Source: Gammaproteobacteria bacterium (GTDB lineage Bacteria > Aquificota > Aquificia > Aquificales > QOAS01). Taken from it: 34,058 bases of DNA. Below, piece by piece: positions 494 to 33,001 of the stretch. Within the stretch, counting starts at the first letter, position 1. Each line of letters opens with the position of its first letter. Where the stretch lies: NCBI GenBank assembly GCA_003972855.1, contig QOAS01000154.1, positions 1 to 34,058 on the forward strand, in the 5' to 3' direction. A program made the translations under genes and the position numbers. Below the pieces are notes generated by a model. That model ran no database searches, had not been told where the DNA came from, and saw nothing but the letters and a program-made list of their open reading frames with translations.

Positions 494-2410
494 TTGGTCT
501 GGGAAAACTACGCCATTTTAAATAAATACCGCTCTTCCGAAGATTTAAAAGTCTTAAGCGAAGAAGAGCTGGAAAAACTCGCCCAAGAGGTTAGAAGATA
601 CATAATAGAGGTTACTTCAAGAACGGGAGGACACGTAGGACCTTCCCTTGGAACTGTGGAACTCACCATTGCCCTCCTTAAGGTGTTTAATCCCCCCAAA
701 GATGTAGTGGTCTGGGATGTAGGACACCAATCCTATGCGTGGAAAATTCTCACCGACAGAAAGGAGAAATTTCCCACCCTACGCCAATACGGGGGTATTT
801 CGGGATTCGTTAAAAGGGGAGAAAGCCCATACGACGCCTTTACGGTGGGACACAGTTCAACCTCCATTTCCGCCGCCCTCGGCATAAGGAAGGGAAAAGA
901 CCTTTTGGGGGAAAAAGAAGATTTCGTCATAGCGGTTATAGGAGACGGTGCCCTAACCGGGGGAGAAGCGTGGGAAGGACTTAACAACGCGGGACAGCTT
1001 AGACCCAACCGCTTTATAGTGGTTCTAAACGATAACGAAATGTCCATATCCCCCAACGTCGGGGCTATATCCAATTACCTCAATAAGGTTTACAGCGGTA
1101 AGGTGGTTCAAGAATTCCGCCAAAGGATAAAGAAACTCTTGGAAAAACGGTTTGAGTTCGGGCTTAGGGTTATGAAACTGCTGGAGGAGTTTGCCAAGGG
1201 TCTTATATCCCCCGGCGTTCTCTTTGAGGAATTGGGATTTAACTACATAGGGGTTATTGACGGTCACAATATTCCCCTTTTGGTTCAAACCTTGGAAAAC
1301 ATAAAAAACATAGAAGGTCCCGTTTTGCTCCATATAAAAACCGTCAAGGGGAAGGGTTACAAACCCGCCGAGGAAAACCCGATAAAGTGGCACGGGGTAG
1401 GTCCCTACAAGTTAGAAACGGGAGAAAGCGCCAAGAAGAAAAAAAGAACTTGGTCGCAGGCATTCGGAGAGGCGTTGGTTGAACTCGCCCAAAGGGACGA
1501 AAGAATAGTGGCTATAACGCCCGCAATGAAAGAGGGTTCGGGACTAACCGAATTTGAAGAAAAATTTCCCGAAAGGTTTTTTGACGTTGGTATAGCGGAG
1601 CAACACGCGGCTACTTTTAGCGCGGGATTGGCAACCCAAGGGTTAAAACCCGTCCTCTGCTACTACTCCACCTTTATGCAAAGGGCTTACGACCAAATAA
1701 TTCACGATATAGCCTTGCAGAAGTTACCGGTGGTTTTGGCAATAGATAGGGCGGGGCTGGTCGGCGAGGATGGACCCACCCACCACGGTGCCTTTGACCT
1801 TTCCTTTTTAAGGTGCGTTCCCAATATGGTTATTTCCGCCCCCAAAGACGAGGTGGAGCTTAGGAATCTGCTTTACACCGCATTGAGACAAAACAGATTC
1901 CCCTTTGCCATAAGGTATCCCCGCGGGGAAGTTGTGGAAAACCTCCTCGGAGAGGGTAAAGAATTTAGGGAAATCCCCATAGGCAGTTGGGAAGTTCTAA
2001 GGGATTTAAACTCAAAGGTCGTTATAGTGGCTACCGGCATAGCGGTAAGTTGGGGGTTAAAAGCCTACGAAATTCTTAAAGAAAATTACGGAGTAGAGGT
2101 TGGAGTAGTAAATGCCCGCTTCGTCAAACCTTTGGACAGGGATTTACTCAAAGAGATAGCCCAAACTTGCGAGGTAATAGTTACGGTGGAAGAAAACACC
2201 CTTAAAGGTGGTCTATACGGTGCGGTGCTTGAGGAGTTAAACGAAATGGGATTACTCAAAGCGGTAAAAGTTAAAGGTATAGGTATCCCCGACCGTTTCG
2301 TAACCCATGGCAACCAAAACCTACTTAGGGAGAAACTAAACCTATCCCCCGAAGGGATTGTTAAAGTCGTAGTCCAAACCTTGGAAGAACTAAAAACCCT
2401 CTCTCCCTAA
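494..2410 (+). CDS. dxs: 1-deoxy-D-xylulose-5-phosphate synthase
   Basis: 638 aa ORF. The N-terminus has GGHVGPSLGTVELTIAL and DVGHQSYAWKILT, with the GDGALTGGEAWEGLNNAG ThDP motif. The start is TTG, preceded by GGAGG (482-486) at 7 nt. Confidence 0.93.
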   Translation: MVWENYAILNKYRSSEDLKVLSEEELEKLAQEVRRYIIEVTSRTGGHVGPSLGTVELTIALLKVFNPPKDVVVWDVGHQSYAWKILTDRKEKFPTLRQYGGISGFVKRGESPYDAFTVGHSSTSISAALGIRKGKDLLGEKEDFVIAVIGDGALTGGEAWEGLNNAGQLRPNRFIVVLNDNEMSISPNVGAISNYLNKVYSGKVVQEFRQRIKKLLEKRFEFGLRVMKLLEEFAKGLISPGVLFEELGFNYIGVIDGHNIPLLVQTLENIKNIEGPVLLHIKTVKGKGYKPAEENPIKWHGVGPYKLETGESAKKKKRTWSQAFGEALVELAQRDERIVAITPAMKEGSGLTEFEEKFPERFFDVGIAEQHAATFSAGLATQGLKPVLCYYSTFMQRAYDQIIHDIALQKLPVVLAIDRAGLVGEDGPTHHGAFDLSFLRCVPNMVISAPKDEVELRNLLYTALRQNRFPFAIRYPRGEVVENLLGEGKEFREIPIGSWEVLRDLNSKVVIVATGIAVSWGLKAYEILKENYGVEVGVVNARFVKPLDRDLLKEIAQTCEVIVTVEENTLKGGLYGAVLEELNEMGLLKAVKVKGIGIPDRFVTHGNQNLLREKLNLSPEGIVKVVVQTLEELKTLSP

Positions 2411-2435
2411 TGGGGTTATCCTTTTTACTTAAACT

Positions 2436-2609
2436 ATGGAGTTCTCTTATATAACCGACCCTCAAACACTTAAAGCGGAAATTGAAAAGTTAAAGGATGC
2501 ACCCTATTTGTATTTGGACATAGAAACCACCACCCACGAGGATTTTACGAAAACCAAAATAAGACTGGTTCAGTTTGGAGATGACAAACTTGGTGGTGGA
2601 TTTGTTTGA
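2436..2609 (+). other. polA: N-terminal fragment of DNA polymerase I (3'-5' exonuclease ExoI motif), in a different frame from the main polA ORF
   Basis: The 57-codon ORF MEFSYITDPQTLKAEIEKLKDAPYLYLDIETTTHEDFTKTKIRLVQFGDDKLGGGFV* carries the LDIETT (DxE) motif. It is below the 60 aa track cut-off. Confidence 0.7.
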
Positions 2610-4182
2610 ATGTCCCGCCTGCGTTGAGATACTAAAGCAATTTTTACCGCAAAAGGCGTGGGTTGGACACAACCTAAAGTTTGACATAAAAAACCTTTAC
2701 TACCACTACGGTATAGAGCCGATAACCACTTTTGACACCTACATAGCCTCAGTTTTGCTCGGAAACGAAAGGAACAGCTTGCAGGCGGTTGTAGAAAAGT
2801 ATTTAGGGGAGTTTTTGGACAAAACGGAGCAACTGTCCAACTGGGGGGCAAGTCAGCTAACGAGCAACCAATTGGAATACGCCGCCAAAGATGTGGAAAT
2901 TTTGAGGAGGCTTTTTCCCATTCTCCTTAAGGAGCTAAACGCCCAAACCTCCCAAAGAAAGGAGTTTTTACTCAAAACGAGGGTAGCGGAGATTTTCGGG
3001 TTGGAAAATCCCATCGCCATAGTGGAAATGGCTATGGTTAAAGAGACGGGAAAGTTGGAAGCCAACGGTTTTACGGTGGACGTTGAAACCCTAAAGGGTA
3101 TGCTCAAAAAGTTAAAGTTGGAACTCCAAAGGTCGCAAATAAATTTTGTGACCAAATACGGTAAAGTGGATATTTTTTCACCCAAGCAGGTTGCCCAATT
3201 TCTCACCAAAAGGTTGGGGCTAAAGCTCCCTTCCACCAAAAGGGGAAACGTGGCAACCGACGACAAAAGTTTATCCGAATACATAGACAACCCCGCGGTG
3301 GCGGAAATCGTAAGAATTAGAAAACTCAAAAAGGTTTACGACAAGATACGGGAACTGGTGGGACACATAAGGGAAAACGGAAGGGTTTACCCCGAATTCA
3401 AACAGATTGGGGCTAAAACGGGTAGAATGTCCGCCAGCGAACCCAACGTTCAAAACATTCCAAGGGACTTGAGAAAAATCTTTAAAGCCCCAGAGGGGAA
3501 AAAATTAATAGTGGCGGATTTCTCCCAAATAGAACTCCGCATAGCCTCCGAATACGTAAACGAGGAAAAGATGATAGAGGCTTTCCAAAACGGGGAAGAC
3601 ATGCACGTGGTAACCGCTTCGTTAGTTTTGGGAAAGGGCAGGGAGGAGGTTACGAAGGAAGAAAGACAACTGGCTAAGGCTATGAACTACGGGCTTATAT
3701 ACGGAATATCCCCGAAGGGGCTTATGGAATACGCAAAGTTTGGTTACGGCGTAGACCTCTCCTTGGAGGAGGCTAAGGATTTGGTAAAACGCTTTTTTAA
3801 AGCCTTTCCCCGATTTTACGAGTGGCACAAAAGTCTTAGGGAAACCCTTAGGGAAAAGGGTAAGGTTGAGGGAGAAACCCTTTTGGGTAGGAAATACATT
3901 GCGGAAACCTTCCAAGACGCCGCCAATTATCCCATTCAGGGAACGGGCGCGGATTTGCTCAAATTAGCGGTGGACATCTTCTCTTACCAAGCCCAGCAAT
4001 GGGGTTTTGAGGTGAAGATAGTAAACTTGGTTCACGACGAGATAGTTTGCGAAGTTCCCCAAGAGCAGGCTCAAGAGGTTGCCCAGCTCCTAAAGGAGAG
4101 TATGGAATACGCGGGGAACTTAATTTTGAAAAAAGTGCCGGTGGAGGCGGAGGTAAAAGTCTCCCAAGTTTGGGAAAAGTGA
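2575..4182 (+). CDS. polA: DNA polymerase I, family A (rest of the 3'-5' exo domain plus polymerase domain; no 5' nuclease domain). The main ORF sits downstream of a frame change.
   Basis: HNLKFDIKNLY (Exo II-like), YAAKDV (Exo III-like), RVYPEFKQIGAKTGRMSASEPNVQNIP, DFSQIELRI (motif A), QLAKAMNYGLIYG (motif B), VNLVHDEIV (motif C). The true N-terminus appears to be at 2436 in another frame. Confidence 0.9.
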   Translation: MEMTNLVVDLFECPACVEILKQFLPQKAWVGHNLKFDIKNLYYHYGIEPITTFDTYIASVLLGNERNSLQAVVEKYLGEFLDKTEQLSNWGASQLTSNQLEYAAKDVEILRRLFPILLKELNAQTSQRKEFLLKTRVAEIFGLENPIAIVEMAMVKETGKLEANGFTVDVETLKGMLKKLKLELQRSQINFVTKYGKVDIFSPKQVAQFLTKRLGLKLPSTKRGNVATDDKSLSEYIDNPAVAEIVRIRKLKKVYDKIRELVGHIRENGRVYPEFKQIGAKTGRMSASEPNVQNIPRDLRKIFKAPEGKKLIVADFSQIELRIASEYVNEEKMIEAFQNGEDMHVVTASLVLGKGREEVTKEERQLAKAMNYGLIYGISPKGLMEYAKFGYGVDLSLEEAKDLVKRFFKAFPRFYEWHKSLRETLREKGKVEGETLLGRKYIAETFQDAANYPIQGTGADLLKLAVDIFSYQAQQWGFEVKIVNLVHDEIVCEVPQEQAQEVAQLLKESMEYAGNLILKKVPVEAEVKVSQVWEK

Positions 4183-6504
4183 TTACTCCAGTTGGGCTAC
4201 CGTTACCCCCGCTCCACCTTCGGAGGGAGTTCCCTCCCTATAAAAAGCCACGTAGGGAGTTTCCTCTAAAACTTCTTCCGTAACCCTCTTTAAAACCCCC
4301 GTTCCTATTCCGTGGATTATCCTAACCAACGAAACACCCGAAAGGTGGGCTTTGTCCAAAAACTTTAAAAGTTCCTCCTTCGCCTCCTCCGCGGTTTTAC
4401 CCCTTAGGTCTATTTCCGCCATTCCCTTGCTTTTCCTCAAAGAGGAGCTTACCTTTATTTCAACCTTCCTTTCGGAGGGAATTGTTTTAGTTCCTTTTAA
4501 GGGGTCGGGTTTTTCCAAATCGGTTTTATCCACCCAAATTTTGAAAGCCCCGCTTTGGACCAAAACCTTGTCCCCCTTTACCTTTAGGGCTTTTACTTGG
4601 GAACCTTTGTAAAGGTATTTCTCCCCTTCTTTTACCTCCTCAATGCGGGAAAGTTTTTCCTTTTTCTCCTTAACCGATTGCGATAGTTCGTTTATAAGTT
4701 TTTCAACCTCGCTTTTAGTTTTAGCCTCCTCAATCCTTTGGAGGGCTTGGGCTTTTAGGGTTATTAAAAATTCTTCCGCTTCCTTTATTGCACCTTTCCA
4801 CCGGCGGAGTTTTTCCCTTTCCAACTCTTCCCTTAGTTTCCTTATTTCCCTTTCGCTCTCCTCTATTTGTTTTTTCAATATTTCCGCTTCTTTTAGTTTT
4901 TCGTGATACTCGCGGGCGTATTTTTGAAGCTCTTGGGTGGCTTTCTCGTATTCCGCGGAAACTTCCATTTTCAGATAAGAACGGGCTTTTTCCACTATAT
5001 CTCTTTTTAATCCCAACCTTTGGGCTATATCCAAGGCGTGGGAACCCCCTATGGTATTGTAGGCGAGTTTGTAAAGGGGTTTTAGACTCTCCTCGTCAAA
5101 CAAAACGGAGGCGGGTGTGTAGTAGGTGCTTTCTAAGGCGTAAAGCTTTATAGGGGTGTGGTGGGTCGTTACAACCGTATAGGCGTTTACCTTTTCAAAG
5201 TATTCCAAAAGGGCTCTGCCCAACGCGGAACCCTCTACGGGGTCGGTTCCCGCCCCCAGTTCGTCTATGAGGACTAAGGTATTGCTGTCGGTTTTGTAGA
5301 GGAAATCCGCAATATTCTTTATGTGTCCCGCAAAGGTGGAAAGGTTTTGCTCTATATTCTGCTCGTCACCTATGTCGGTAAATATCTTGTCAAAAACCCT
5401 TAACTTGCTCCCTTCCTCACAAATAATGGGAATACCCAATTGGAACATTAGGGCATTCAAACCCAAGGTTTTGAGGGCAACCGTTTTTCCACCGGTGTTG
5501 GGTCCCGTTATAACAAGTCCCCTCCTCTCGCGGGTCAAAATTAGGTCTATGGCAACCACGTTTTGGTCTCCCAGATTGAGAACCAAAAGGGGATGTTTGG
5601 TATTTTTAAGGTAAACCTCCGTTGGGGAAATTTCGGGAAATCTAGCCCCTATCTCGTTGCCAAATTTAGCCTTCGCCCAAAGCCAATCCAAGTGGACCAA
5701 AATTTCAAAACTCCTCAAAAGTTCGTCCGCTTTTTTTCCCACCACCGAGGTTAAGAACCTCAAAACCTTTTTAACCTCCCTTTCTTCCGCTTCCCTCAGT
5801 TCCACCAAGCGGTTGTTTAAACCCACCACCAACGCGGGTTCAAAGAAGGTGGTTTTACCTGAAGAGGATACGCCGTGGGCGATACCCCTTATTCGTTTGG
5901 CGTAGGAAGTTTTTAAAGCCACCACATACCGTCCTTGGCGTAAGGTCACTATACGGTCTGCCACGTATTTGGCGTTTTCCTCTATAAACCTCTCAAGGGT
6001 TTGAACTATTTGCCTTTCAAGGTTTCTAATCCGCTTTCTTAAAGATGCCAGTTCAAAGTTAGCTTCGTCCTTTAAAAATCCTTTCTCGTCCAAGGCGTGG
6101 CGTAGTTCCCTCTCTATCTCTTTAAAAGAGCCTATTTGACCCTCATACTTCCGCAAGTTGGGGTATTCTTTGGAAAGTCTCTTTAGGTAATCCTTTACAA
6201 CCCTTAGGGTGGTAACCACCTTAAGCACCTCGTGAAGCTCTTTGGCGGAAAGCCAAGCCCCTTCTATCTTTGCCCTTTTGAGGTAGGGTCTTACATCTTC
6301 AAATTCGCCTATAGGTAGCTTTAAACCGCTTTTGAGTAGATTTAAGAAAACCCGTGTATCCTCTACCTCTTCCCTAACCTTTAGCTCCTGACGGTGGGGT
6401 CGGAGCCTATCTATGTATTCCCTCGTGGCGGGTGAAGAGGTGTATTCCTTTACCTTAGCAAGGATTTTGGACAGTTCCAACTTCAGCAAATCCTTTTCCC
6501 TCAT
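4183..6504 (-). CDS. mutS2: Endonuclease MutS2 (MutS domain V ATPase plus C-terminal Smr domain)
   Basis: 773 aa with Walker A ITGPNTGGKTV, LIDELGAGTDP, a long coiled-coil linker, and C-terminal Smr (IDLRGKTAEEA...RIIHGIGTGVLK). Confidence 0.92.
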   Translation of the reverse strand: MREKDLLKLELSKILAKVKEYTSSPATREYIDRLRPHRQELKVREEVEDTRVFLNLLKSGLKLPIGEFEDVRPYLKRAKIEGAWLSAKELHEVLKVVTTLRVVKDYLKRLSKEYPNLRKYEGQIGSFKEIERELRHALDEKGFLKDEANFELASLRKRIRNLERQIVQTLERFIEENAKYVADRIVTLRQGRYVVALKTSYAKRIRGIAHGVSSSGKTTFFEPALVVGLNNRLVELREAEEREVKKVLRFLTSVVGKKADELLRSFEILVHLDWLWAKAKFGNEIGARFPEISPTEVYLKNTKHPLLVLNLGDQNVVAIDLILTRERRGLVITGPNTGGKTVALKTLGLNALMFQLGIPIICEEGSKLRVFDKIFTDIGDEQNIEQNLSTFAGHIKNIADFLYKTDSNTLVLIDELGAGTDPVEGSALGRALLEYFEKVNAYTVVTTHHTPIKLYALESTYYTPASVLFDEESLKPLYKLAYNTIGGSHALDIAQRLGLKRDIVEKARSYLKMEVSAEYEKATQELQKYAREYHEKLKEAEILKKQIEESEREIRKLREELEREKLRRWKGAIKEAEEFLITLKAQALQRIEEAKTKSEVEKLINELSQSVKEKKEKLSRIEEVKEGEKYLYKGSQVKALKVKGDKVLVQSGAFKIWVDKTDLEKPDPLKGTKTIPSERKVEIKVSSSLRKSKGMAEIDLRGKTAEEAKEELLKFLDKAHLSGVSLVRIIHGIGTGVLKRVTEEVLEETPYVAFYREGTPSEGGAGVTVAQLE

Positions 6505-6549
6505 CTTTTGTTAAATTTTGCTTTTGTCAAAGTGCTTTAATAGGTTTTG

Positions 6550-8496
6550 ATGACTTTAACTGCAAAACAGCTTGAGGAAAATTTTGAAAAAAACATCGCC
6601 TTTTTTGAAAAGGGTTTTCCCAAATTGGCGGAGAAATTTAAAGATTTCAAACCTTCCGCGGACTTAATTTTAGACCCCGACTTGGGTATCAATATATTTG
6701 ACCGCAAAAAGGAGGCTTTTTTATATCCCGGCGACGGAAGGCTTATAACCCTAAAACAGATAGCCTACTGGTTGGAAAATCCTTCCTTTTTCACCTTGGC
6801 GCCCGCGGAAATGGATGAAAGCGAAGGTTACCTCCATACGCGGTATATAAACCGTTTGGTGCGCTTGCGAAAGGAACTTCTAAAAACCGACCGCCTTTCG
6901 TTAACCTCCACCATACCGATGTCCCTCCTCATTGTAGGTGTAGGTTTGGGGGAACATCTAAAGTTTTTGGTTGAAAACCTAAATTTGGAAAACCTCCTTA
7001 TTTTGGAACCCAATGAAGACTTCTTTTACATCTCCCTTCACTACCTAAATTGGGAAGAACTAATAAAAACCTTTACCGAAAAGGGGGGTCTGAGAATTTC
7101 CATCCTCGTAGGGGAAGATGCCAAAGATACCGACAGAATTTCGGGATTTTTTTCCCTAATAGGTGCCTTCAAGGCTTCTACTACCTTCTTATATATCCAC
7201 TATTTGGACGAATTTTTAAAAAACTTTGTAAAGGAATTGGGAACGGAAGTTGTAAGAAATATTTCCTTCTTCGGTTTCTTTGACGATGAGATAATTTCGC
7301 TCAAACACACCCTTACCAACATAAAAAACAGGGTTCCCCTCTTTAACCCCCATAGTAAAGGGCTTTCCCCCGACATTCCCGCGGTGGTCGTGGGTTCGGG
7401 ACCCTCTTTGGAGTTTCTTTTACCATACCTAAAGAGGTATGGGGACAAACTGTTTATAATTTCCTGCGGAACCGCATTGGGAATTTTGGAAAAGCACGGA
7501 ATAAAACCCGACTTACACACAAACATTGAAAGGATTCCCCTTCCCTACGAGGTTGCACTGAAAACCACCTCCGAGGAGTTTAGGAAAGAAATACCTTTTT
7601 TGGGTGCCAACAATAATTACCCTCCATTCTTCGGGATTTTCAAAAAAGGGGCTATGTTTTTAAAGGCGGGCGACGCGGGAGCGGACCTTTTTCCCCAAGA
7701 AAAGCTTTACTATGTAAACCCGACGGTTACCAATACCGGTCTGGCTTTAGCCTTTTATTTAGGCTTCAAAAAGGTTTACCTCTTTGGGGTAGACCTCGCA
7801 TTTGAGGGCAAAAAACACCACGCAAAGGGAAGCGCCTACGACACCCTCCTAAAAGATATGGAAAAACTCCTTAAGGGGGAAATAGAGGTTGAAGGAAACT
7901 TCGGAGGGAAGGTTGTTACCAACTCAATCTTTTACAGTTCCCTCAAGTTTATGGGAGAATCCATTAAATACTTCAAAGGTGTTAGGAAGGAGTTTGAAGT
8001 CTTTAACCCCAACAGGGGGGCTAAAATAGAGGGAGCAACCCCTTTAAGGGAAGAGGAATTGGAAAACCACCTTAAGGAGCTAAAGGAAAACAAAAAAACA
8101 TTTGCGGAAAGGTTTTGGCAAGAAACGGTTGAACCTTTAAAGGAGGAGTGGTTTGACTTCCCGAAACTCAAAATGCAACTGATGACCAACTTTTACCAAC
8201 TCAAAATGGTAATGGATGAGGTTTTGGAAAAAACGGAAAGGGCGGAAGATTTCGCCCAAACGGTGGCGGAATTTTACGACTACATAAGGGTTATAAGAAA
8301 TCACAACCCAATTCTTTACCACCTCTTGCACGGAACTTTAACCCTCTTTTTAGCCCACCTGCAGTTTGGACTTTTTGCGGATGTTCCCACCCCCCAAAAG
8401 GAGCTTTACCTAAAAGAGGCTAAAAAACTTCTAAGGGAAATGCTCCAAGAGATGGAAAAGGAAATTTACAACCTATACGATTATTTTCCCTTCTAA
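6550..8496 (+). CDS. Motility-accessory-factor-like protein (Maf / DUF115, MptE-like fold); putative nonulosonic-acid (flagellin) glycosyltransferase
   Basis: About 648 aa. The N-terminus LEENFEKNIAFFEKGFPKLAEKF...DLGINIFD resembles Maf N-termini. The core has VVVGSGPSLEFLLP...FIISCGTA and VYLFGVDLAF. ATG 6550 is preferred over TTG 6547. Confidence 0.6.
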   Translation: MTLTAKQLEENFEKNIAFFEKGFPKLAEKFKDFKPSADLILDPDLGINIFDRKKEAFLYPGDGRLITLKQIAYWLENPSFFTLAPAEMDESEGYLHTRYINRLVRLRKELLKTDRLSLTSTIPMSLLIVGVGLGEHLKFLVENLNLENLLILEPNEDFFYISLHYLNWEELIKTFTEKGGLRISILVGEDAKDTDRISGFFSLIGAFKASTTFLYIHYLDEFLKNFVKELGTEVVRNISFFGFFDDEIISLKHTLTNIKNRVPLFNPHSKGLSPDIPAVVVGSGPSLEFLLPYLKRYGDKLFIISCGTALGILEKHGIKPDLHTNIERIPLPYEVALKTTSEEFRKEIPFLGANNNYPPFFGIFKKGAMFLKAGDAGADLFPQEKLYYVNPTVTNTGLALAFYLGFKKVYLFGVDLAFEGKKHHAKGSAYDTLLKDMEKLLKGEIEVEGNFGGKVVTNSIFYSSLKFMGESIKYFKGVRKEFEVFNPNRGAKIEGATPLREEELENHLKELKENKKTFAERFWQETVEPLKEEWFDFPKLKMQLMTNFYQLKMVMDEVLEKTERAEDFAQTVAEFYDYIRVIRNHNPILYHLLHGTLTLFLAHLQFGLFADVPTPQKELYLKEAKKLLREMLQEMEKEIYNLYDYFPF

Positions 8497-9509
8497 ACCT
8501 TGTGAGAAAGCTCTACAAATTTCTCCACCGTTTGTTTTACCTTCCCGCTCCTTATTAGCTCCTTGGAAAGCTCTACCCCTTCCCTTAGGGAGGAAACTTT
8601 TTCCGCCACGTAGAGGGCAAAGGCTGAATTTACCGCCAAAAAGTCTTCGCCCGCTTCGTTTTTACCTTCCAAAATTTCCCAAAAGATTTGAACGTTACGG
8701 GTGCAATCTCCACCTTCTATCTCCCTCAAAGGTCTCCTCTTTACCCCCAACTCCTCGGGGGAAATTTTGTAAGTTTTCACCCCTTCGGGGGAAACTTCTC
8801 CCACCAAGGTTTCCGCGGTAACCGATACCTCGTCCAGTCCCTCAAGTCCGTGAACCACGAAAGCCCTCAAAGCTCCCAAATCTTTGAGAACTTGCGCCAA
8901 AGGTTCCACCAGTTTGGCGTCGTAAACCCCTACAACCTGCCGTTTTGCCCCCGCAGGGTTGGAAAGGGGTCCCACCAAATTAAAAAGGGATTTAACGCCG
9001 AGTTCCCTCCTAACTTTTGCCACATTTTTCATCGCGGGATGATACAGCGGTGCGAACAGAAATGCCAAATTGGTTTCTTCCAAAAGCCTTAAAGCCCCTT
9101 CGGGGGGTATTTCTACTTTTACACCCAAAGCTTCCAAAAAGTCCGCACTACCGCATTTGCTTGAAACCGCCCTATTTCCGTGTTTGGCAACCTTTACCCC
9201 CGCGGAAGCCACCACAAAGGCGCTCATGGTGGAGACGTTGAAGGTATCTACCTTATCCCCTCCCGTTCCGCAGGTGTCCACCAGCTTTTCGGGATAGGGG
9301 TAATCCACCTTTGTAGCCCACTCCCTAAATTTCTCCGCCGCCGCGACTATTTCCTCCACGCAAGCCCCTTTCATAGCCATGCCCATAATGAAGGCGCCGA
9401 TTTGCCCCTCGGTAGCCCTTCCCCCAACTATATCCTCTAAGGCGGAACGCAATTCCGATTTCGTTAAATCCTCAAAACGGGATAATTTTCTTATGATGTC
9501 TTTACGCAT
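8493..9509 (-). CDS. trpD: Anthranilate phosphoribosyltransferase
   Basis: 338 aa with DTCGTGGDKVDTFNVST, KHGNRAVSSKCGSAD and NLVGPLSNP motifs. Confidence 0.93.
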   Translation of the reverse strand: MRKDIIRKLSRFEDLTKSELRSALEDIVGGRATEGQIGAFIMGMAMKGACVEEIVAAAEKFREWATKVDYPYPEKLVDTCGTGGDKVDTFNVSTMSAFVVASAGVKVAKHGNRAVSSKCGSADFLEALGVKVEIPPEGALRLLEETNLAFLFAPLYHPAMKNVAKVRRELGVKSLFNLVGPLSNPAGAKRQVVGVYDAKLVEPLAQVLKDLGALRAFVVHGLEGLDEVSVTAETLVGEVSPEGVKTYKISPEELGVKRRPLREIEGGDCTRNVQIFWEILEGKNEAGEDFLAVNSAFALYVAEKVSSLREGVELSKELIRSGKVKQTVEKFVELSHKV

Positions 9510-9954
9510 AGTGTTAATGATATTTTCCTTTTTGGGTTTTACCGCCTTTAGCCAACCCTTTTGCGGGGTTGAAGTAGAAAATCCCTTTCCCCTCCAAAGG
9601 GGTTTTATAAGTTCCTATCTAAACCAAAAGGTGTTTGAGACCTTAATTGAAACCGGTTTCGTGCAGGACTGCAAAAAGGGAAAACCCGTCTTGGTAAGGG
9701 TAAAAAGGGTGGACTTCAAGGGTTCCTCCATATCGGGAAACCGCTTTAGCGGTTACACCTTTTACCTATCCTTTGATATAGTCCTTCCAAAGGAAACACT
9801 TTCTTACAGCCTTTCCAAATACGTTTCTTTGCCCGACCCCTCGTTGGGAACTTTGCCAATAAGAAGCGCAATGGTAGACCTTTTGGAAACTTACCAGATG
9901 AGGATAAAAAAAGACCTTTTGGAGTATAAGGAAAAGTTTAAAGATGGAAGTTAA
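9493..9954 (+). CDS. Hypothetical exported protein (N-terminal signal peptide)
   Basis: The in-frame ATG at 9493/9496 gives [22 protein letters not shown].., a signal-peptide-like start. The 191 aa track ORF upstream of this ATG is antisense to trpD. No family recognised. Confidence 0.45.
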
Positions 9955-10933
9955 AGCCTTCGTGTGGAATTCGGGAGAACTTAAGGTTTTAAATCAGCTG
10001 AAACTTCCCCGAGAGGAAGAGTGGCTTTCCCTAAAAAGCTACAGAGAGGTTGCCAAGGCGATAAAGGATATGGTGGTAAGGGGCGCACCCGCAATAGGGT
10101 GCGTCGCGTCTTACGGTTTTGTGTTGGGGGTTAAATACGAAAAGGAAGACCCCGAAGAAGTTTTTCAAGCCTTGAAAAATACCCGCCCTACCGCGGTAAA
10201 TCTCTTTTGGGCTTTGGAGAGGGTTAAAAAAGCTTTGGAAAGCGGTAAAGATGTAGAGGAAGAGGCAAAAGCTATAGAGCGGGAGGATTACGAGACCAAC
10301 CTAAAAATAGGAGAAAACGGAAACACCCTAATCCCCGAAGGGGCAAAAATCCTAACCCACTGCAATACGGGGGCTTTGGCTACCGCGGGATACGGCACCG
10401 CGTTGGGGGTTATAAGAAGTGCCTTTAGAAGCGGAAAAAATATTTTCGTTTGGGTGGACGAAACCCGTCCCTATTTGCAGGGCGCCCGCCTTACCGCTTG
10501 GGAACTGGCTAAAGAAGGTATCCCCCACAGGATTATTACCGACTCCACCGCCGGCTTTTTGATGAGGAAAAAAATGGTAGATGCGATTATCGTAGGAGCG
10601 GACCGCATCACCCTAAGGGGGGACGTAGCCAACAAAATAGGGACTTACACTTTGGCGGTTTTGGCAAAGGAACACAAAATACCCTTTTACGTAGCCGCAC
10701 CGCTTTCAACCTTTGACCCAAATCTGTTTTCGGGGGAAGAAATACCTATAGAGGAGAGAAGTGAGGAGGAGGTCAAAACCTGTTTCGGTTGTAAAGTGGC
10801 ACCTACCGAAAGCGGGGCATTGCATTGGGGTTTTGATGTAACCCCCGCGGAGCTTATAGACGCCATTATCACCGAAAAGGGTATTATTCAAAAGCCTACA
10901 CCCGAAAAGGTTAAAAGACTTTTGGGGATTTAA
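9944..10933 (+). CDS. mtnA: Methylthioribose-1-phosphate isomerase (eIF-2B alpha/beta/delta-like family)
   Basis: 329 aa with [49 protein letters not shown]. Confidence 0.88.
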
Positions 10934-10945
10934 AATCCCCCTTTA

Positions 10946-12973
10946 ATGTCTTCCAAAGGAAAACCAACCGTAGCGGTTGGGGTTGATACGGGCGGAACCT
11001 TTACCGATTTCGTATACAAAACCCCCGAGGGGTGGAAGGTTTACAAAACCCTCTCCACCCCCGAAAATCCCGCCAAAGCGATACTTGAGGGGTTAAAGGT
11101 TATAGGCGAAGACCTACCGAGGTATATAGTCCACGGAACGACGGTGGCAACCAACACCCTCTTGGAACGAAAGGGGGCAAAAACCGCCTTCGTAACCAAC
11201 AAAGGTTTCAAGGACATAATAGAGATAGGTCGCCAAAATAGGGAAAGGCTTTACGACCTACACTACCGAAGGGAAAAACCGCTCGTTCCCCGCAACCTTA
11301 GGTTTGAAATTGACTGCAGGGTAAACTCCAAAGGTCAAATCGTCAAAGATATAGACCCCAAAGAGGTTGAGGAGCTAATAGAAAACCTAAAAAAGGAAAG
11401 GGTTGAAGCGGTCGCGGTTTGTTTTCTCTTTTCCTTTTTAAATCCCCAACACGAAAAGTTGGTGGGCAAACTAATTAGGGAAAAACTTAAAGGGGTTTAC
11501 GTATCGGTTTCCTCCGAAATTCTACCCGAATTCAGGGAGTTTGAAAGGGCTTCCACAACGGTGGTAAACGCCTATGTAGCCCCCAAAATGGCAAAGTATG
11601 TAACCACCCTAAAGGAAAGTCTTTCCCCCCAAGATAGGCTCGTAATAATGCAGTCCAGCGGAGGGGTAATTTCCGCGGATACGGTAATTAAAGAACCGGT
11701 TAGAACGGTTTTGAGCGGTCCCGCGGGCGGGGTTGTAGGCGCTTGGAAAATAGGAAAATTGGCGGGCTTTGAAAAGCTTATCACCTTTGACATGGGGGGA
11801 ACTTCAACCGACGTTTCCCTCGTGGACGGAAAACCTTCCTTTACGACGGAAACAAAAATCTCGGGAATTCCGATTAAGGTGCCGATGATAGAAATTCACA
11901 CGGTAGGGGCGGGAGGCGGTTCCATAGTTTGGATTGACGAGGGGGGAGCTTTAAAGGTGGGACCCCAAAGTGCGGGGGCAAACCCGGGTCCGATTTGCTA
12001 CGGCAGGGGTGGAAAGGAGATAACCGTTACCGATACCAACCTCTTTTTGGGAAGGCTTGTCCCCGACCACTTTTTGGGTGGAAATATGAAACTCCACAAC
12101 GAAGGGGTTGAAAGGGCTTTCAAAAACCTCTCGGAGAAACTAAAGGTAGACCCCTACCGGCTGGCGGAAGGAATTTTGGAAATAGCCAATACCAAAATGG
12201 AGGGTGCAATAAGGGTAATCTCCGTTCAAAGGGGTTACAACCCTTCGGAATTTACCCTCGTGAGTTTCGGCGGTGCGGGGGGAATGCACGCGGTCTTTTT
12301 GGCTAAAAAGTTAGGCATACCGAGGGTTTTAATTCCCAAAAATCCGGGACTTTTGTCCGCAATGGGTATGCTTTTGGCAGACCTCGTAAGGGATTACTCC
12401 CTAACCGTTATGCTACCGATTGAGGGAGGGAGGGAACAAGAGCTTTACCGACACCTAAAGGAGCTTTTTAAGACCTTGGAAAACCGCGCGCTGGAGGAAA
12501 TGGAAAGGGAAGGTTTTACCCAGCTCGGTAAAGATCTATTTTTGGAACACTCATTGGACGTAAGGTATAAGGGACAATCCTACGAGGTTAATATTCCCTT
12601 TACCCCTCAAATAAGGGAGGAGTTTGAAAGGGTTTACAAAAACCTTTACGGTTACACCTTGGAAAACCGTCCCCTTGAGGTGGTAAACATCAGGCTCAAA
12701 GCGATAGGCGTAGGAGAGAAACCCCCCTTACCTCCCATAGAGAAGAGCGACGGAAAACTCCTCTCGCGGGCGGTTGTAGGCGAACAAAAAACCTTTTTCG
12801 GAGGAAAAACCTACACCGTAAAGGTTATAGATAGGGATAAACTCCTCGCGGGCGATAGATGGGACTTTCCATCAATAGTGGTTGAATATTCCTCCACTCT
12901 GGTAATCCCACCCGGTTGCTTCGTTAGGGTTGATGAATTTGGAAACCTCATAGTGGAAGTTTTTGAAAATTAA
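10946..12973 (+). CDS. hyuA: Hydantoinase/oxoprolinase family protein, A (HyuA-type) subunit
   Basis: 675 aa. N-terminus VGVDTGGTFTDFV, central FDMGGTSTDVSL and HTVGAGGGSI, typical of the hydantoinase_A/oxoprolinase ATPase fold. Confidence 0.85.
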   Translation: MSSKGKPTVAVGVDTGGTFTDFVYKTPEGWKVYKTLSTPENPAKAILEGLKVIGEDLPRYIVHGTTVATNTLLERKGAKTAFVTNKGFKDIIEIGRQNRERLYDLHYRREKPLVPRNLRFEIDCRVNSKGQIVKDIDPKEVEELIENLKKERVEAVAVCFLFSFLNPQHEKLVGKLIREKLKGVYVSVSSEILPEFREFERASTTVVNAYVAPKMAKYVTTLKESLSPQDRLVIMQSSGGVISADTVIKEPVRTVLSGPAGGVVGAWKIGKLAGFEKLITFDMGGTSTDVSLVDGKPSFTTETKISGIPIKVPMIEIHTVGAGGGSIVWIDEGGALKVGPQSAGANPGPICYGRGGKEITVTDTNLFLGRLVPDHFLGGNMKLHNEGVERAFKNLSEKLKVDPYRLAEGILEIANTKMEGAIRVISVQRGYNPSEFTLVSFGGAGGMHAVFLAKKLGIPRVLIPKNPGLLSAMGMLLADLVRDYSLTVMLPIEGGREQELYRHLKELFKTLENRALEEMEREGFTQLGKDLFLEHSLDVRYKGQSYEVNIPFTPQIREEFERVYKNLYGYTLENRPLEVVNIRLKAIGVGEKPPLPPIEKSDGKLLSRAVVGEQKTFFGGKTYTVKVIDRDKLLAGDRWDFPSIVVEYSSTLVIPPGCFVRVDEFGNLIVEVFEN

Positions 12974-26343: not shown

Positions 26344-26964
26344 ATGAACCTTACCAGCAAAAGGGAAATATTAAAAAAAATTTATGAACCCTTCGGGCTT
26401 TCCTTGGCTTATTTAAATATTCCGCCCAATGCGATTACCTTGCTGTCAATAATAGCGGGAACTCTTTCCGCTTACGCCTTTTATACCCACCATGTTTTAA
26501 CGGGGGCTACATTGCTCGTTATCTCCGGTTTGCTGGACTTGGCGGACGGAATAGTAGCAAGACACAACGACAGGGCTACGAAATTCGGCGCGGTTTTGGA
26601 CTGGCTGGCGGATAAATTTGTGGACGGTTTGGTTTTGGGAGCGGTGGCGGTTGCTTACGCCAACCCTTGGATTGCCATAGTGCTTATAACGGTAAATATG
26701 CTCCACACCTTTGTAAAACCCGTTGCGTATGCGGAAATAGGCTTCTCCCAAAGGGAAAAAGGGAAAATTTGGGACCCCCTGGAGGGGGTAGGATTTTTCG
26801 GAAGACCGGAAACCCACATAGCGTTGGTATTTTTTGCGGTGCTGGAGAGGTTTATAGGCGGAAGTCTCACCTTGGGGGTTTACTTCATAACGGTTATGAC
26901 CACCTTGTCGCTTATCCAAAGGGTCTTCTACCTTTATAGGAGGTTTGGAAATAAATTGGACTGA
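26344..26964 (+). CDS. CDP-alcohol phosphatidyltransferase family protein (inositol-phosphate/archaetidylinositol-phosphate-synthase-like size class)
   Basis: 206 aa multi-TM protein with DLADGIVARHNDRATKFGAVLDWLADKFVD, matching D-G-x2-A-R-x8-G-x3-D-x3-D. Confidence 0.85.
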   Translation: MNLTSKREILKKIYEPFGLSLAYLNIPPNAITLLSIIAGTLSAYAFYTHHVLTGATLLVISGLLDLADGIVARHNDRATKFGAVLDWLADKFVDGLVLGAVAVAYANPWIAIVLITVNMLHTFVKPVAYAEIGFSQREKGKIWDPLEGVGFFGRPETHIALVFFAVLERFIGGSLTLGVYFITVMTTLSLIQRVFYLYRRFGNKLD

Positions 26965-26967
26965 TTG

Positions 26968-27143
26968 CCCGTTATGGAAAGCCCCTCAGTAGGTTAGTGA
27001 CCTCCTCCCCTCATCAGAGATGAGGGGCTTCCCGCTTCATCGTGGGCAAAGCCCACTCCACGGGCGTTACTTCCCCGCGGTCCACGGGTAGGGCAGACAT
27101 TAGGCGGTCTGCCAGCGCCTTTAAAAAGTTTAAGCTTTACGGG
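26968..27143. ncRNA. Candidate structured RNA or palindromic element of unknown family (GC-rich, hairpin-dense); strand unresolved
   Basis: Long-range helix CCCGT..AAAGC (26968-26982) with GCTTTACGGG (27134-27143). It encloses at least three local hairpins: 27007-27027 (9 bp), 27042-27056 (6 bp) and 27092-27113 (7 bp). By eye GC is about 60%, against AT-rich intergenic DNA elsewhere. No protein-like ORF. Confidence 0.4.
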
Positions 27144-27188
27144 TCGCAGGGGATTTTTTCCCCTGCAGTTATTCCCCCTTTTTACACT

Positions 27189-27215
27189 ATTATATCACCA
27201 AAAACAAAAAATCAA
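27189..27215 (-). promoter_or_regulatory. Candidate minus-strand promoter with extended -10, reading into the structured element
   Basis: On the minus strand: TTGATT (27215-27210), 15 nt spacer ending TGa, TATAAT (27194-27189). The 15-mer CTTGATTTTTTGTTT is identical to the tRNA-Pro promoter at 308-322. Confidence 0.4.
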
Positions 27216-27290
27216 GACCTATCGGATGCCATTCATCCCCCCATCATAGATGAGGGGCTTTCTGGCGTGATTTCCTGTAAAAATGTTTCC

Positions 27291-28268
27291 ATGGACTGGG
27301 AAAGTTACCTAAAACGGTTGGAAGACAGCTCCATAAGGGGTGAGGTAACAAAGGAAGACCTTTTGAAGTTACCCCAAATCCCTACCGAGTATCTCCCCCT
27401 TATGGTTTACCACGCGGGAAAGGTTAAAAAACACTTTTTCGGGAACGAAATAGAATTCTGCAGTATCGTTAATGCAAAGTCGGGAGCCTGCTCGGAAGAC
27501 TGTAAATTTTGCGCCCAATCGCGCCACTACAATACCCGAGTTCCCGTTTATACCTTTTTGGATGAAAAGGAGATTGTAAAGGGAGCGGAGTTGGCAAACC
27601 TTTTCGGCTCCAAGCGTTACAGTTTGGTTTTAAGCGGACGCTCCGCCGGTGACCGAGAAATTGAAAGAATGGTTTCCGTAGCCCGAAGAATAAAGGAAAA
27701 GCTACCCCAACTGAAACTGTGCTTTTCCGCGGGGACACTAAACGGGGAACAGATAAGGAGACTAAAAGAGGCGGGCTTTAGCAGACTCCACTGCAATTTG
27801 GAGACCTCCGAAAGGTTTTTCCCGCAAATAGTTTCCACCCACGGTTGGAGGGAAAGATACGAAACCCTTTTGAGGGCTAAAGAGTTGGGATTGGAAACCT
27901 GCTCAGGGGGTATTTTCGGTTTAGGGGAAACTTGGGAGGACAGGGTAGATTTGGCTCTAACCCTTTCGGAGTTGAAAGTAGACTCCATACCCCTAAACTT
28001 TTTGATTCCGATACCGGGAACACCCCTTGAAGGTCAAAAACTCCTTTCACCAAAGGATGCCCTTGTGACTGTAGCCATATTTAGGTTTGCCTGTCCCAAA
28101 GCGGAACTACGGCTGGCGGGAGGTAGGGAAAGGATTTTGGGGGATTACCTCGGAATGGCAAACTTTATGGTAAACGCCCACATGGTCGGCGGGTATCTAA
28201 CCCGTGCGGGCAGAGACCCCCAAGAGGACAAGAAAATGGTTGAAGGAATAGGTCTTAAACTTATTTGA
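27291..28268 (+). CDS. bioB: Biotin synthase (radical SAM)
   Basis: MDWESYLKRLED... with CSEDCKFCAQS (CxxxCxxC). The upstream 83 codons of the track ORF cover the structured GC-rich element and look non-coding. Confidence 0.9.
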   Translation: MDWESYLKRLEDSSIRGEVTKEDLLKLPQIPTEYLPLMVYHAGKVKKHFFGNEIEFCSIVNAKSGACSEDCKFCAQSRHYNTRVPVYTFLDEKEIVKGAELANLFGSKRYSLVLSGRSAGDREIERMVSVARRIKEKLPQLKLCFSAGTLNGEQIRRLKEAGFSRLHCNLETSERFFPQIVSTHGWRERYETLLRAKELGLETCSGGIFGLGETWEDRVDLALTLSELKVDSIPLNFLIPIPGTPLEGQKLLSPKDALVTVAIFRFACPKAELRLAGGRERILGDYLGMANFMVNAHMVGGYLTRAGRDPQEDKKMVEGIGLKLI

Positions 28269-32099: not shown

Positions 32100-33001
32100 T
32101 ACATTTGATAAAAAATCTTTATCCACACCAATTTTGAACTTTATCCACATTGTAAAACCCTTGATAGAGTAAGGTTTTGTGGATTTTTATCCACAGAATA
32201 TCCACACAATTGTAATTTTTGTGGATAAAATACACCTTTTTGAGACTCAATATCAGTTAGCTTGACATTAAATACTAAAATTTAGTTGCTTGACAATAGA
32301 TACAAACAGGGTAAAACTGCAAAAGTTTTAAATAACACAAACTTCAAGATGTCTTCTTTTATCCACACAAATTTTACTTTTGTGGATAAATTCGTGGATA
32401 AATTTTTCGTCTTAGTATAAAGCGGTCTATATTTGTCAAGTTATATCCTTTTATCCACACAAATTATCATTGCGAAAATCTCAATTTTGCGTCGTTCTGA
32501 GCTTACTCTCCCAATGGTTTCAGTGTCAGCAATTGAAATTTGCAAAATGCAAGTCTATTATTAATAATTATTAAAAAAATAAATAGCTATCTATTCGTTT
32601 AATAGCCAGCTATATATACGCCCAGATTAAAAATTTGTTATTTTTTATATTAATAATAGGCGGAATGTCAAGTTTCATCTCGCCTTACTGCGACAAGGGT
32701 TTCCCGTTATCCACACAAATTTTGTTTTTGTGGATAAATGAATGTCAAATTTTACGAAATTCTTGTGGCTGTAAGGCGAAATTTATCCACATTTCAAACT
32801 TGACAACAACGAAATAACTTGACAAAATAATTTCACTTGAGAGGTTCCGAGCCTACTCTCTCAAGGGTTTGGGATTTTTATCCACACAAAAGTTCCTTGT
32901 GTGGAGATACTGAGTCTCAAAATTGCGGAAGTTATTGATAGAGTAAGTCAAACCTATGTGGATAAAAATTCCACTTTTTGTGGACAAAGGAAATTTCCAC
33001 A
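32100..33001. other. Chromosomal replication origin (oriC): two DnaA-box clusters flanking an AT-rich unwinding region
   Basis: There are 12 perfect TTATCCACA/TGTGGATAA 9-mers. Forward boxes start at 32119, 32141, 32187, 32359, 32451, 32707, 32783 and 32878. Reverse boxes start at 32220, 32381, 32729 and 32957. Three boxes have 1 mismatch (32198, 32393, 32979) and three have 2 mismatches (32178, 32900, 32993). There is no credible ORF. Confidence 0.9.
32545..32660. other. AT-rich putative DNA-unwinding element of oriC
   Basis: About 115 bp of very high A+T between the two DnaA-box clusters. ATTAATAAT occurs twice (32570-32578, 32649-32657). Confidence 0.6.

Follow-up and report, generated by a model that had tools for sequence, protein, structure and literature searches.

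Introduction

Gene-less derivatives of IS200/IS605-family transposons, known as PATEs, have been described in Haloquadratum, Halobacterium and Geobacillus (PMC3119063, PMC4615843, PMC10055086). These elements often encode omegaRNAs, for which TnpB is needed in trans (PMC10055086), and expression of one PATE-derived RNA is known from Halobacterium (PMC4615843). For IS608 of Helicobacter pylori, the geometry of the ends has been published: on its 5′ side, the foot of the left hairpin is 19 nt away from TTAC, AAAG occupies that foot, and the right hairpin is followed by 10 nt up to the right end (PMC3201880). On the RNA side, the reRNA of IS607 TnpB has RAGATH-18 as its core, a motif reported only with IS607 TnpB (PMC11061315), and a link has been drawn between HgcC and the right-end hairpin of tnpB elements of the IS1341 type (PMC4615843).

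Here we describe the interval upstream of the biotin synthase gene bioB in a 34,058-nt stretch of DNA (hereafter the window; contig QOAS01000154.1), which matches in public runs identify as hydrothermal-vent metagenome DNA. A first-pass annotation had singled out 26968-27143 as a structured element closed by a long-range helix and possibly controlling bioB in cis. We find that positions 26997-27276, read on the minus strand, very probably constitute a 280-nt tnpB-less miniature derivative of the IS200/IS605 family (a PATE or MITE) that carries a TnpB guide-RNA scaffold. Elements of this kind, PATE-type miniature IS200/IS605 derivatives with a TnpB scaffold, are already known; the one described here is a new family member in a vent Aquificota genome. 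Its recognition removes a false lead towards a biotin riboswitch and brings to the known TnpB elements a family from thermophilic Aquificota, characterised by a TTTAC target and a compact ~140-nt scaffold.

Genomic setting

The element lies in the 326-nt gap between a CDP-alcohol phosphatidyltransferase-family gene (26344-26964, plus strand; Pfam PF01066), its upstream neighbour, and bioB (27291-28268, plus strand; Radical_SAM and BATS domains), whose true ATG is at 27291, a start kept in relatives. Exact-protein look-ups of the window’s BioB and transferase returned the same arrangement only. The GC richness that first drew attention to the gap is real, at 58% over 26968-27143 and 64% over 26997-27121 vs 44% for the window, and it was right to take such an island, in a thermophile genome of moderate AT richness, as the sign of a structured RNA; the HgcC RNAs were once discovered by the same reasoning. 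Likewise, the four hairpins at 27007-27027, 27042-27056, 27092-27113 and 27146-27166 are all present where the first-pass annotation had placed them.

Ends and borders of the element

On the minus strand the element runs from a left end at 27276 to a right end at 26997, as borders shared among copies, empty sites in relatives and a step in metagenome depth all indicate. Directly 5′ of the left end lies TTTAC (27277-27281, minus strand), the predicted TnpA cleavage motif and TnpB TAM. The left end (27237-27276, minus strand) consists of a 19-nt linker, AGGAAATCACGCCAGAAAG (27276-27258), ending in AAAG, and an imperfect-palindrome hairpin of 9 bp (27257-27237). The right end (26997-27027, minus strand) is a hairpin, CCCCUCAUC-ucu-GAUGAGGGG (27027-27007), which also serves as the 3′ stem of the RNA scaffold, followed by a 10-nt tail, AGGAGGUCAC; this tail, AGGAGGTCAC, finishes with TCAC and ends at 26997. 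The two subterminal hairpins (27237-27257 and 27007-27027) are 89% alike (repeat D12), and both are conserved in full-length copies of the element. Between the ends, ~95 nt with a promoter-like sequence and a hairpin stand in place of the tnpB reading frame.

This order of parts, TTTAC, 19 nt and a hairpin on the left with a hairpin and 10 nt on the right, matches the published IS608 geometry and thereby identifies 26997-27276 as the element. The shared features are the TTAC target, the 19-nt spacing, the AAAG guide tetranucleotide at the left foot and the 10-nt spacing on the right. The right cleavage motif, however, is TCAC here and TCAA in IS608, the sequences are unrelated, and the full-length relatives of our element carry tnpB only, without an adjacent tnpA, as in IS1341-type elements.

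The same borders recur at other loci (given L numbers below). A sharp border at GTGAC (26997) is common to 17 aligned copies, the left end is common to the window and the full-length copies L016, L006 and L019, and the window, L010, L016, L006 and L019 all have TTTAC next to the left end. The unit originally drawn at 26968-27143 was therefore mis-bounded, the real one being 26997-27276. The proposed closing helix goes with it: its arms, 26968-26982 and 27134-27143, are complementary as written, but the left arm is native intergenic DNA outside the border at 26997, part of which (TATGGAAAG) is found in relatives without the element, and the right arm is not conserved, reading CCTGAAAAATATTAATTT in L010.

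Empty sites in relatives and copy number in the community

For a comparison of orthologous sites, we fetched BioB homologues together with their contigs (L023, L024 and L025), whose BioB proteins are 94%, 82% and 80% identical to that of the window, respectively. In all three, only 17-46 nt separate the stop codon of the upstream gene from the bioB ATG, and the 280-nt element is absent. The empty site in L024 reads ...CCCCGCTG|GTAAAAATGTTTCCATG, and the filled site in the window reads ...CAGTAGGTTA|[element]|GTAAAAATGTTTCCATGG. GTAAA is already present at the empty-site junction of L024, and insertion occurred without target-site duplication.

These sites bear directly on the suggestion that the structure is a plus-strand leader or riboswitch controlling bioB. 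Its position is what such a leader would have, directly upstream of bioB and on the same side, but relatives with BioB proteins as similar as 80-94% do without it, and the same sequence recurs at many unrelated loci and inside the 3′ ends of tnpB genes, as described below.

Depth in the source metagenomes tells of many copies. Depth over 26997-27280 is 15-130x that of the flanks, which stand at ~10 in one dataset (X1) and 80-100 in another (X2); in X2 the depth of the element reaches 1,300-11,000. Loose ends pile up at 26997 and at 27281-27285, and the segment specific to the gene-less form has a DNA depth ~15-25x that of the single-copy flanks. A search of the metagenome contigs for the empty-site junction pattern gave 0 matches, and no empty allele was found in the source metagenomes, where the single variant seen was internally deleted: one X1 DNA contig passes straight from 27041 to 27222, leaving out 180 nt, and represents a further-deleted derivative somewhere in the community.

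Most copies elsewhere form the 3′ end of tnpB genes

Scanning a species-genome collection with a pattern from the most conserved stretch yielded 19 loci, 17 of them real; the remaining matches, in Gemmatimonadales (L005) and Pseudomonas (L015), were due to chance and scored 17-21 bits with the RNA model R1 described below. The 17 copies come from vent metagenome-assembled genomes (MAGs), mostly Desulfurobacteriaceae/Aquificota, plus some labelled Thermotogaceae and Deltaproteobacteria. Two copies per MAG are common, many copies sit close to contig ends, and in the alignment the flanking DNA and neighbours differ in every copy. Scaffold cores that are nearly identical turn up under the labels Thermotogaceae and Deltaproteobacteria (L014, L004 and L009), which means that the element has spread horizontally between thermophiles of the vents or that bins are contaminated.

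In most copies, the core runs on into a minus-strand tnpB gene and forms its 3′ end, reaching the right end on the tnpB strand (L001, L006, L013, L016, L018, L019 and others). The open reading frame encodes TnpB, with the Pfam domains OrfB_IS605 and Cas12f1-like_TNB; its closest solved structure is ISDra2 TnpB (E 6e-21), and the next, non-IS605 entries have E values of 1e-8 to 1e-12. By tblastn, window positions 27121-26996 match the final 42 codons of the TnpB frame in L016 at 90% identity. The remainder of tnpB is missing, and tblastn found no other tnpB-like sequence in the 34-kb window. By eye only, the surroundings of the full-length tnpB element in L016 (L016:213-4048) have a CRISPR-associated look, as it lies between a Cas6-like 246-aa ORF and a 552-aa ORF.

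A second gene-less copy, L010, has the same internal architecture at a different site in another MAG. Searched against metagenome contigs, a pattern specific to the gene-less form matched the L010 contig only. Among the tnpB-linked copies, L017:574-715 has lost the right-end hairpin, apparently via a deletion between two GGAAG repeats (GAAGCAGGAAG|TCAC); this copy scores 108 bits with the RNA model and is probably immobile.

With its features of a gene-less, multicopy unit, the element closely resembles PATEs: it is free of ORFs, keeps both subterminal hairpins, and contains an RNA drawn from the tnpB 3′ end and the right end. It differs from them in its host, an Aquificota vent MAG, and in its ~95 nt of non-tnpB filler with the promoter-like sequence and a conserved hairpin, whereas earlier PATEs have been described as fused ends.

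A probable guide-RNA scaffold on the minus strand

The TnpB omegaRNA (reRNA) scaffold core spans 26997-27137 on the minus strand, as delimited by a covariance model, by homology to the tnpB 3′ end and by metatranscriptome contigs. The model, R1, was built from 12 tnpB-linked copies only and searched against the window, where its sole strong match, at 27137-26997 on the minus strand, was full length (140.3 bits, E 8e-39). The window’s scaffold scores as high as those of tnpB-linked copies. As in the omegaRNA/reRNA of ISDra2 and the sotRNAs of IS1341-type elements, the RNA overlaps the tnpB 3′ end, runs to the right end and would take its guide from the flank. The scaffold appears to differ from that of ISDra2 in both sequence and structure, and tnpB is missing in the window.

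Three stem-loops organise the scaffold. At its 3′ end is the right-end hairpin (27007-27027), whose stem shows compensatory changes among copies, with the caveat that this hairpin is also a DNA signal, which qualifies its conserved pairing as evidence for an RNA. Next comes a RAGATH-18-like core (27029-27064, minus strand) with an outer helix CCCGU/GCGGG, internal loops GGA and GAUGAA, an inner helix GUGGGC/GCCCAC and a truncated apex; here a C-G to U-A covariation occurs in 4 copies. The 5′ stem-loop, GGCAGAC/GUCUGCC (27092-27113, minus strand), is replaced by other sequence in some copies. The first-pass annotation had proposed conservation and covariation in relatives as a check, and both were found: the hairpins at 27007-27027 and 27042-27056 are present in 16/16 aligned copies and that at 27092-27113 in the window and 10/16, and compensatory changes occur. 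A consensus fold of 17 minus-strand copies, which are closely related, contains 27 pairs, 5 of them with compensatory changes. A metatranscriptome variant adds compensatory changes at 27096/27109 and 27097/27108 in the 27092-27113 stem.

Both strands fold well: the stretch folds better than dinucleotide shuffles with z of -3.96 on the plus strand and -4.14 on the minus strand. The good plus-strand fold would suit a bioB leader. However, 98% of the consensus-pair cells are canonical on the minus strand vs 86% on the plus strand, and 61 cells that are G·U on the minus strand become A·C mismatches on the plus strand. We therefore favour the minus strand, where these pairs are valid. In L010, too, the 27092-27113 stem is kept through G·U pairs that are valid on the minus strand only. 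Taking together the empty sites, the multicopy distribution, this strand asymmetry, the unconserved closing helix and the weak but informative RAGATH-18 resemblance described below, the evidence contradicts a biotin-responsive or other plus-strand cis-regulatory role in bioB expression, and we regard such a role as having almost no chance of being correct.

Several copies vary at the apex of the RAGATH-18-like core, where insertions of 38-42 nt are found. L003:728-902 and L008:2184-2366 have extra GC-rich hairpins of 38-42 nt in the apical loop or beside the RAGATH-18-like helix, and a metatranscriptome variant has a comparable 38-nt insertion at window position 27047-27050, in the loop of 27042-27056. 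These insertions mark the apex as a tolerated expansion site, which fits the long apical stem of true RAGATH-18.

Within 27029-27091, the scaffold also contains a direct repeat, CCCGUGGA, at 27086-27079 and 27064-27057 (minus strand), each with its own GCGGG partner. The two repeats account for two alternative RNAalifold folds, of which the RAGATH-18-like pairing is better supported by covariation.

Resemblance to RAGATH-18 and HgcC

A search of the whole window with Rfam at gathering thresholds returned only two tRNAs, and so nothing in the gap; in E-value mode, riboswitch, SRP, 6S, RNase P and tmRNA matches were absent. The lack of a match to any known riboswitch family is compatible with a bioB leader of a new class, as the first-pass annotation had envisaged. 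The search did find two families below threshold on the minus strand, RAGATH-18 (RF03064; 33.0 bits, E 8e-5, gathering score 44.9) and HgcC (RF00062; 19.1 bits, gathering score 50). Matches to the C/D-box sRNAs sR1, sR2 and sR47 (12-17 bits) were set aside as by-products of a GAUGA/CUGA palindrome in a bacterium. A piece of a 5S or other rRNA operon was considered as well, as copies sit at contig ends, and was rejected, since Rfam gave no such match.

The likeness to RAGATH-18 extends over the basal helices and both internal-loop strands, which align (cCUguGGAGuG...CaCGaUGAAgcAGgAA vs CCCGUGGAGUGGGC...CCCACGAUGAAGCGGGAA), and the strand and the position inside the TnpB guide RNA are the same. 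The two differ at the apex, where 39 nt of RAGATH-18 are replaced by 4 nt in the window, and in the type of element: RAGATH-18 goes with IS607 and AGGAG, whereas the element here has IS605-type hairpin ends, a TTTAC target and an ISDra2-like TnpB. Alignment with HgcC is confined to two parts, a 5′ hairpin-GAUGA segment and a 3′ hairpin that continues into the shared GAGGAGGUCA tail, and both RNAs came to light as GC islands in thermophile genomes of higher AT content. The window lacks the central 44 nt of the HgcC model, and the hosts of HgcC are hyperthermophilic archaea, whereas the host here is bacterial.

The double resemblance is a hint that what Rfam treats as several families is a single guide-RNA lineage. 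The case as a whole also shows that GC-island RNA candidates in thermophiles are best compared with transposon guide RNAs before anything else. More tentatively, RAGATH-18, HgcC and the Aquificota scaffold could form one TnpB guide-RNA superfamily across the IS607/IS605 divide, in which the vent guide RNA would have become its own promoter-bearing mini-transposon, multiplying to tens of copies, counting as one of the community’s abundant small RNAs and parasitising TnpB and TnpA in trans; we put this forward as a possibility that we do not expect to hold in full.

Expression and a putative promoter

RNA matching the element is present in metatranscriptome libraries. Contigs from three studies match ~26990-27177 with variable flanks; they are unstranded, derive from mixed communities and many stem from related copies. 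The contigs cover the scaffold and the gene-less-specific segment 27122-27177, which includes a hairpin (27146-27166, minus strand) that is identical in the window and L010 and is itself covered by RNA contigs in X7 and X8. RNA coverage ends at ~27177-27195 and falls to zero depth over 27196-27280, a stretch where DNA depth is about equal to that on the other side. That RNA stops where DNA depth continues points away from carried-over DNA and towards a 5′ end near 27177-27190. Since the contigs are unstranded, the assignment of the transcript to the minus strand draws on the tnpB homology and the G·U asymmetry.

Just upstream of the presumed 5′ end lies a putative guide-RNA promoter (27189-27215, minus strand), made up of TTGATT (27215-27210), a 15-nt spacer and a TG-extended TATAAT (27194-27189; TGaTATAAT). 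L010 has TTGACT...TAAAAT at this position. A scan of 26800-27400 for consensus promoters and terminators called nothing; the scan needs a spacer of 16-18 nt, and the candidate has 15. Given this short spacer and the uncalled scan, we regard the promoter as an inferred one. If it is active, the element would be a gene-less, apparently self-promoted form of guide RNA, and a natural case of the modular trans-acting omegaRNAs discussed by Meers et al.

The RNA contigs also help to weigh the element against a decayed, inert transposon relic, in which a tnpB 3′ end and the transposon ends survive by chance, with neither a functional guide RNA nor mobility. Such a relic would be expected to look in part as this element does: tblastn finds no tnpB in the window, no empty allele turned up in the population, and further-deleted derivatives exist, namely the 27041-27222 joint and the L017 copy without its right-end hairpin. 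Chance survival sits poorly, however, with L010, in which the same deletion architecture is found at a different site in another MAG, and with the ~15-25x depth of the gene-less-specific segment, which indicates that the gene-less form itself has multiplied. Moreover, RNA contigs cover that very segment, and the scaffold scores equal those of tnpB-linked copies. We consider a relic unlikely and favour a miniature element that may still be mobile and whose guide RNA may still be used.

Proposed mechanism and neighbouring genes

On our reading, the element descends from a tnpB-only IS200/IS605-family insertion sequence and came to lie 3′ of a TTTAC, with 14 nt between it and the start codon of bioB. 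It has kept the two subterminal hairpins, which a Y1 TnpA supplied in trans would recognise, and the ~140-nt 3′-terminal TnpB guide-RNA scaffold (omegaRNA/reRNA). Transcription on the minus strand is predicted to start at ~27180, pass through the scaffold and leave across the right end, such that ~16-20 nt of adjacent host DNA would become the guide. The predicted 20-nt guide, UAACCUACUGAGGGGCUUUC (26977-26996, minus strand), is native DNA beside the right end, placed by the published rule for the guide position of TnpB (PMC10055086). TnpB from a full-length copy elsewhere could then load the guide RNA and, after excision by TnpA, cut the TTTAC-flanked empty site (donor joint), with recombination restoring the element.

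The same position invites a further reading, that of a domesticated element regulating its neighbours, for example as an outward promoter or barrier for bioB or through antisense RNA into the 3′ end of the transferase gene. In relatives, bioB and its upstream neighbour probably share one transcript; here the element lies between them, its border falls 14 nt short of the bioB ATG, and any minus-strand RNA running out through the right end would be antisense to the upstream gene at its 3′ end. The insertion is not conserved at the bioB site in relatives, however, and all copies have different neighbours, and we judge domestication to be quite improbable. On the reading of a mobile miniature element, the insertion so close to the bioB start may nonetheless change biotin-synthase expression.

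The start region of bioB itself offers two observations. An obvious Shine-Dalgarno sequence is absent from 27277-27293 in the window and from the equivalent site in L023 and L024, and a TG-preceded TAAAAAT stands ~7 nt upstream of the bioB ATG in the window as well as in relatives without the element. The bioB mRNA may be leaderless or near-leaderless; if so, the insertion took the place of the -35 region. Elsewhere in the window, at 32117-32990, TTATCCACA DnaA boxes form a cluster in direct and inverted orientation, which corresponds to the replication origin named by the first-pass annotation.
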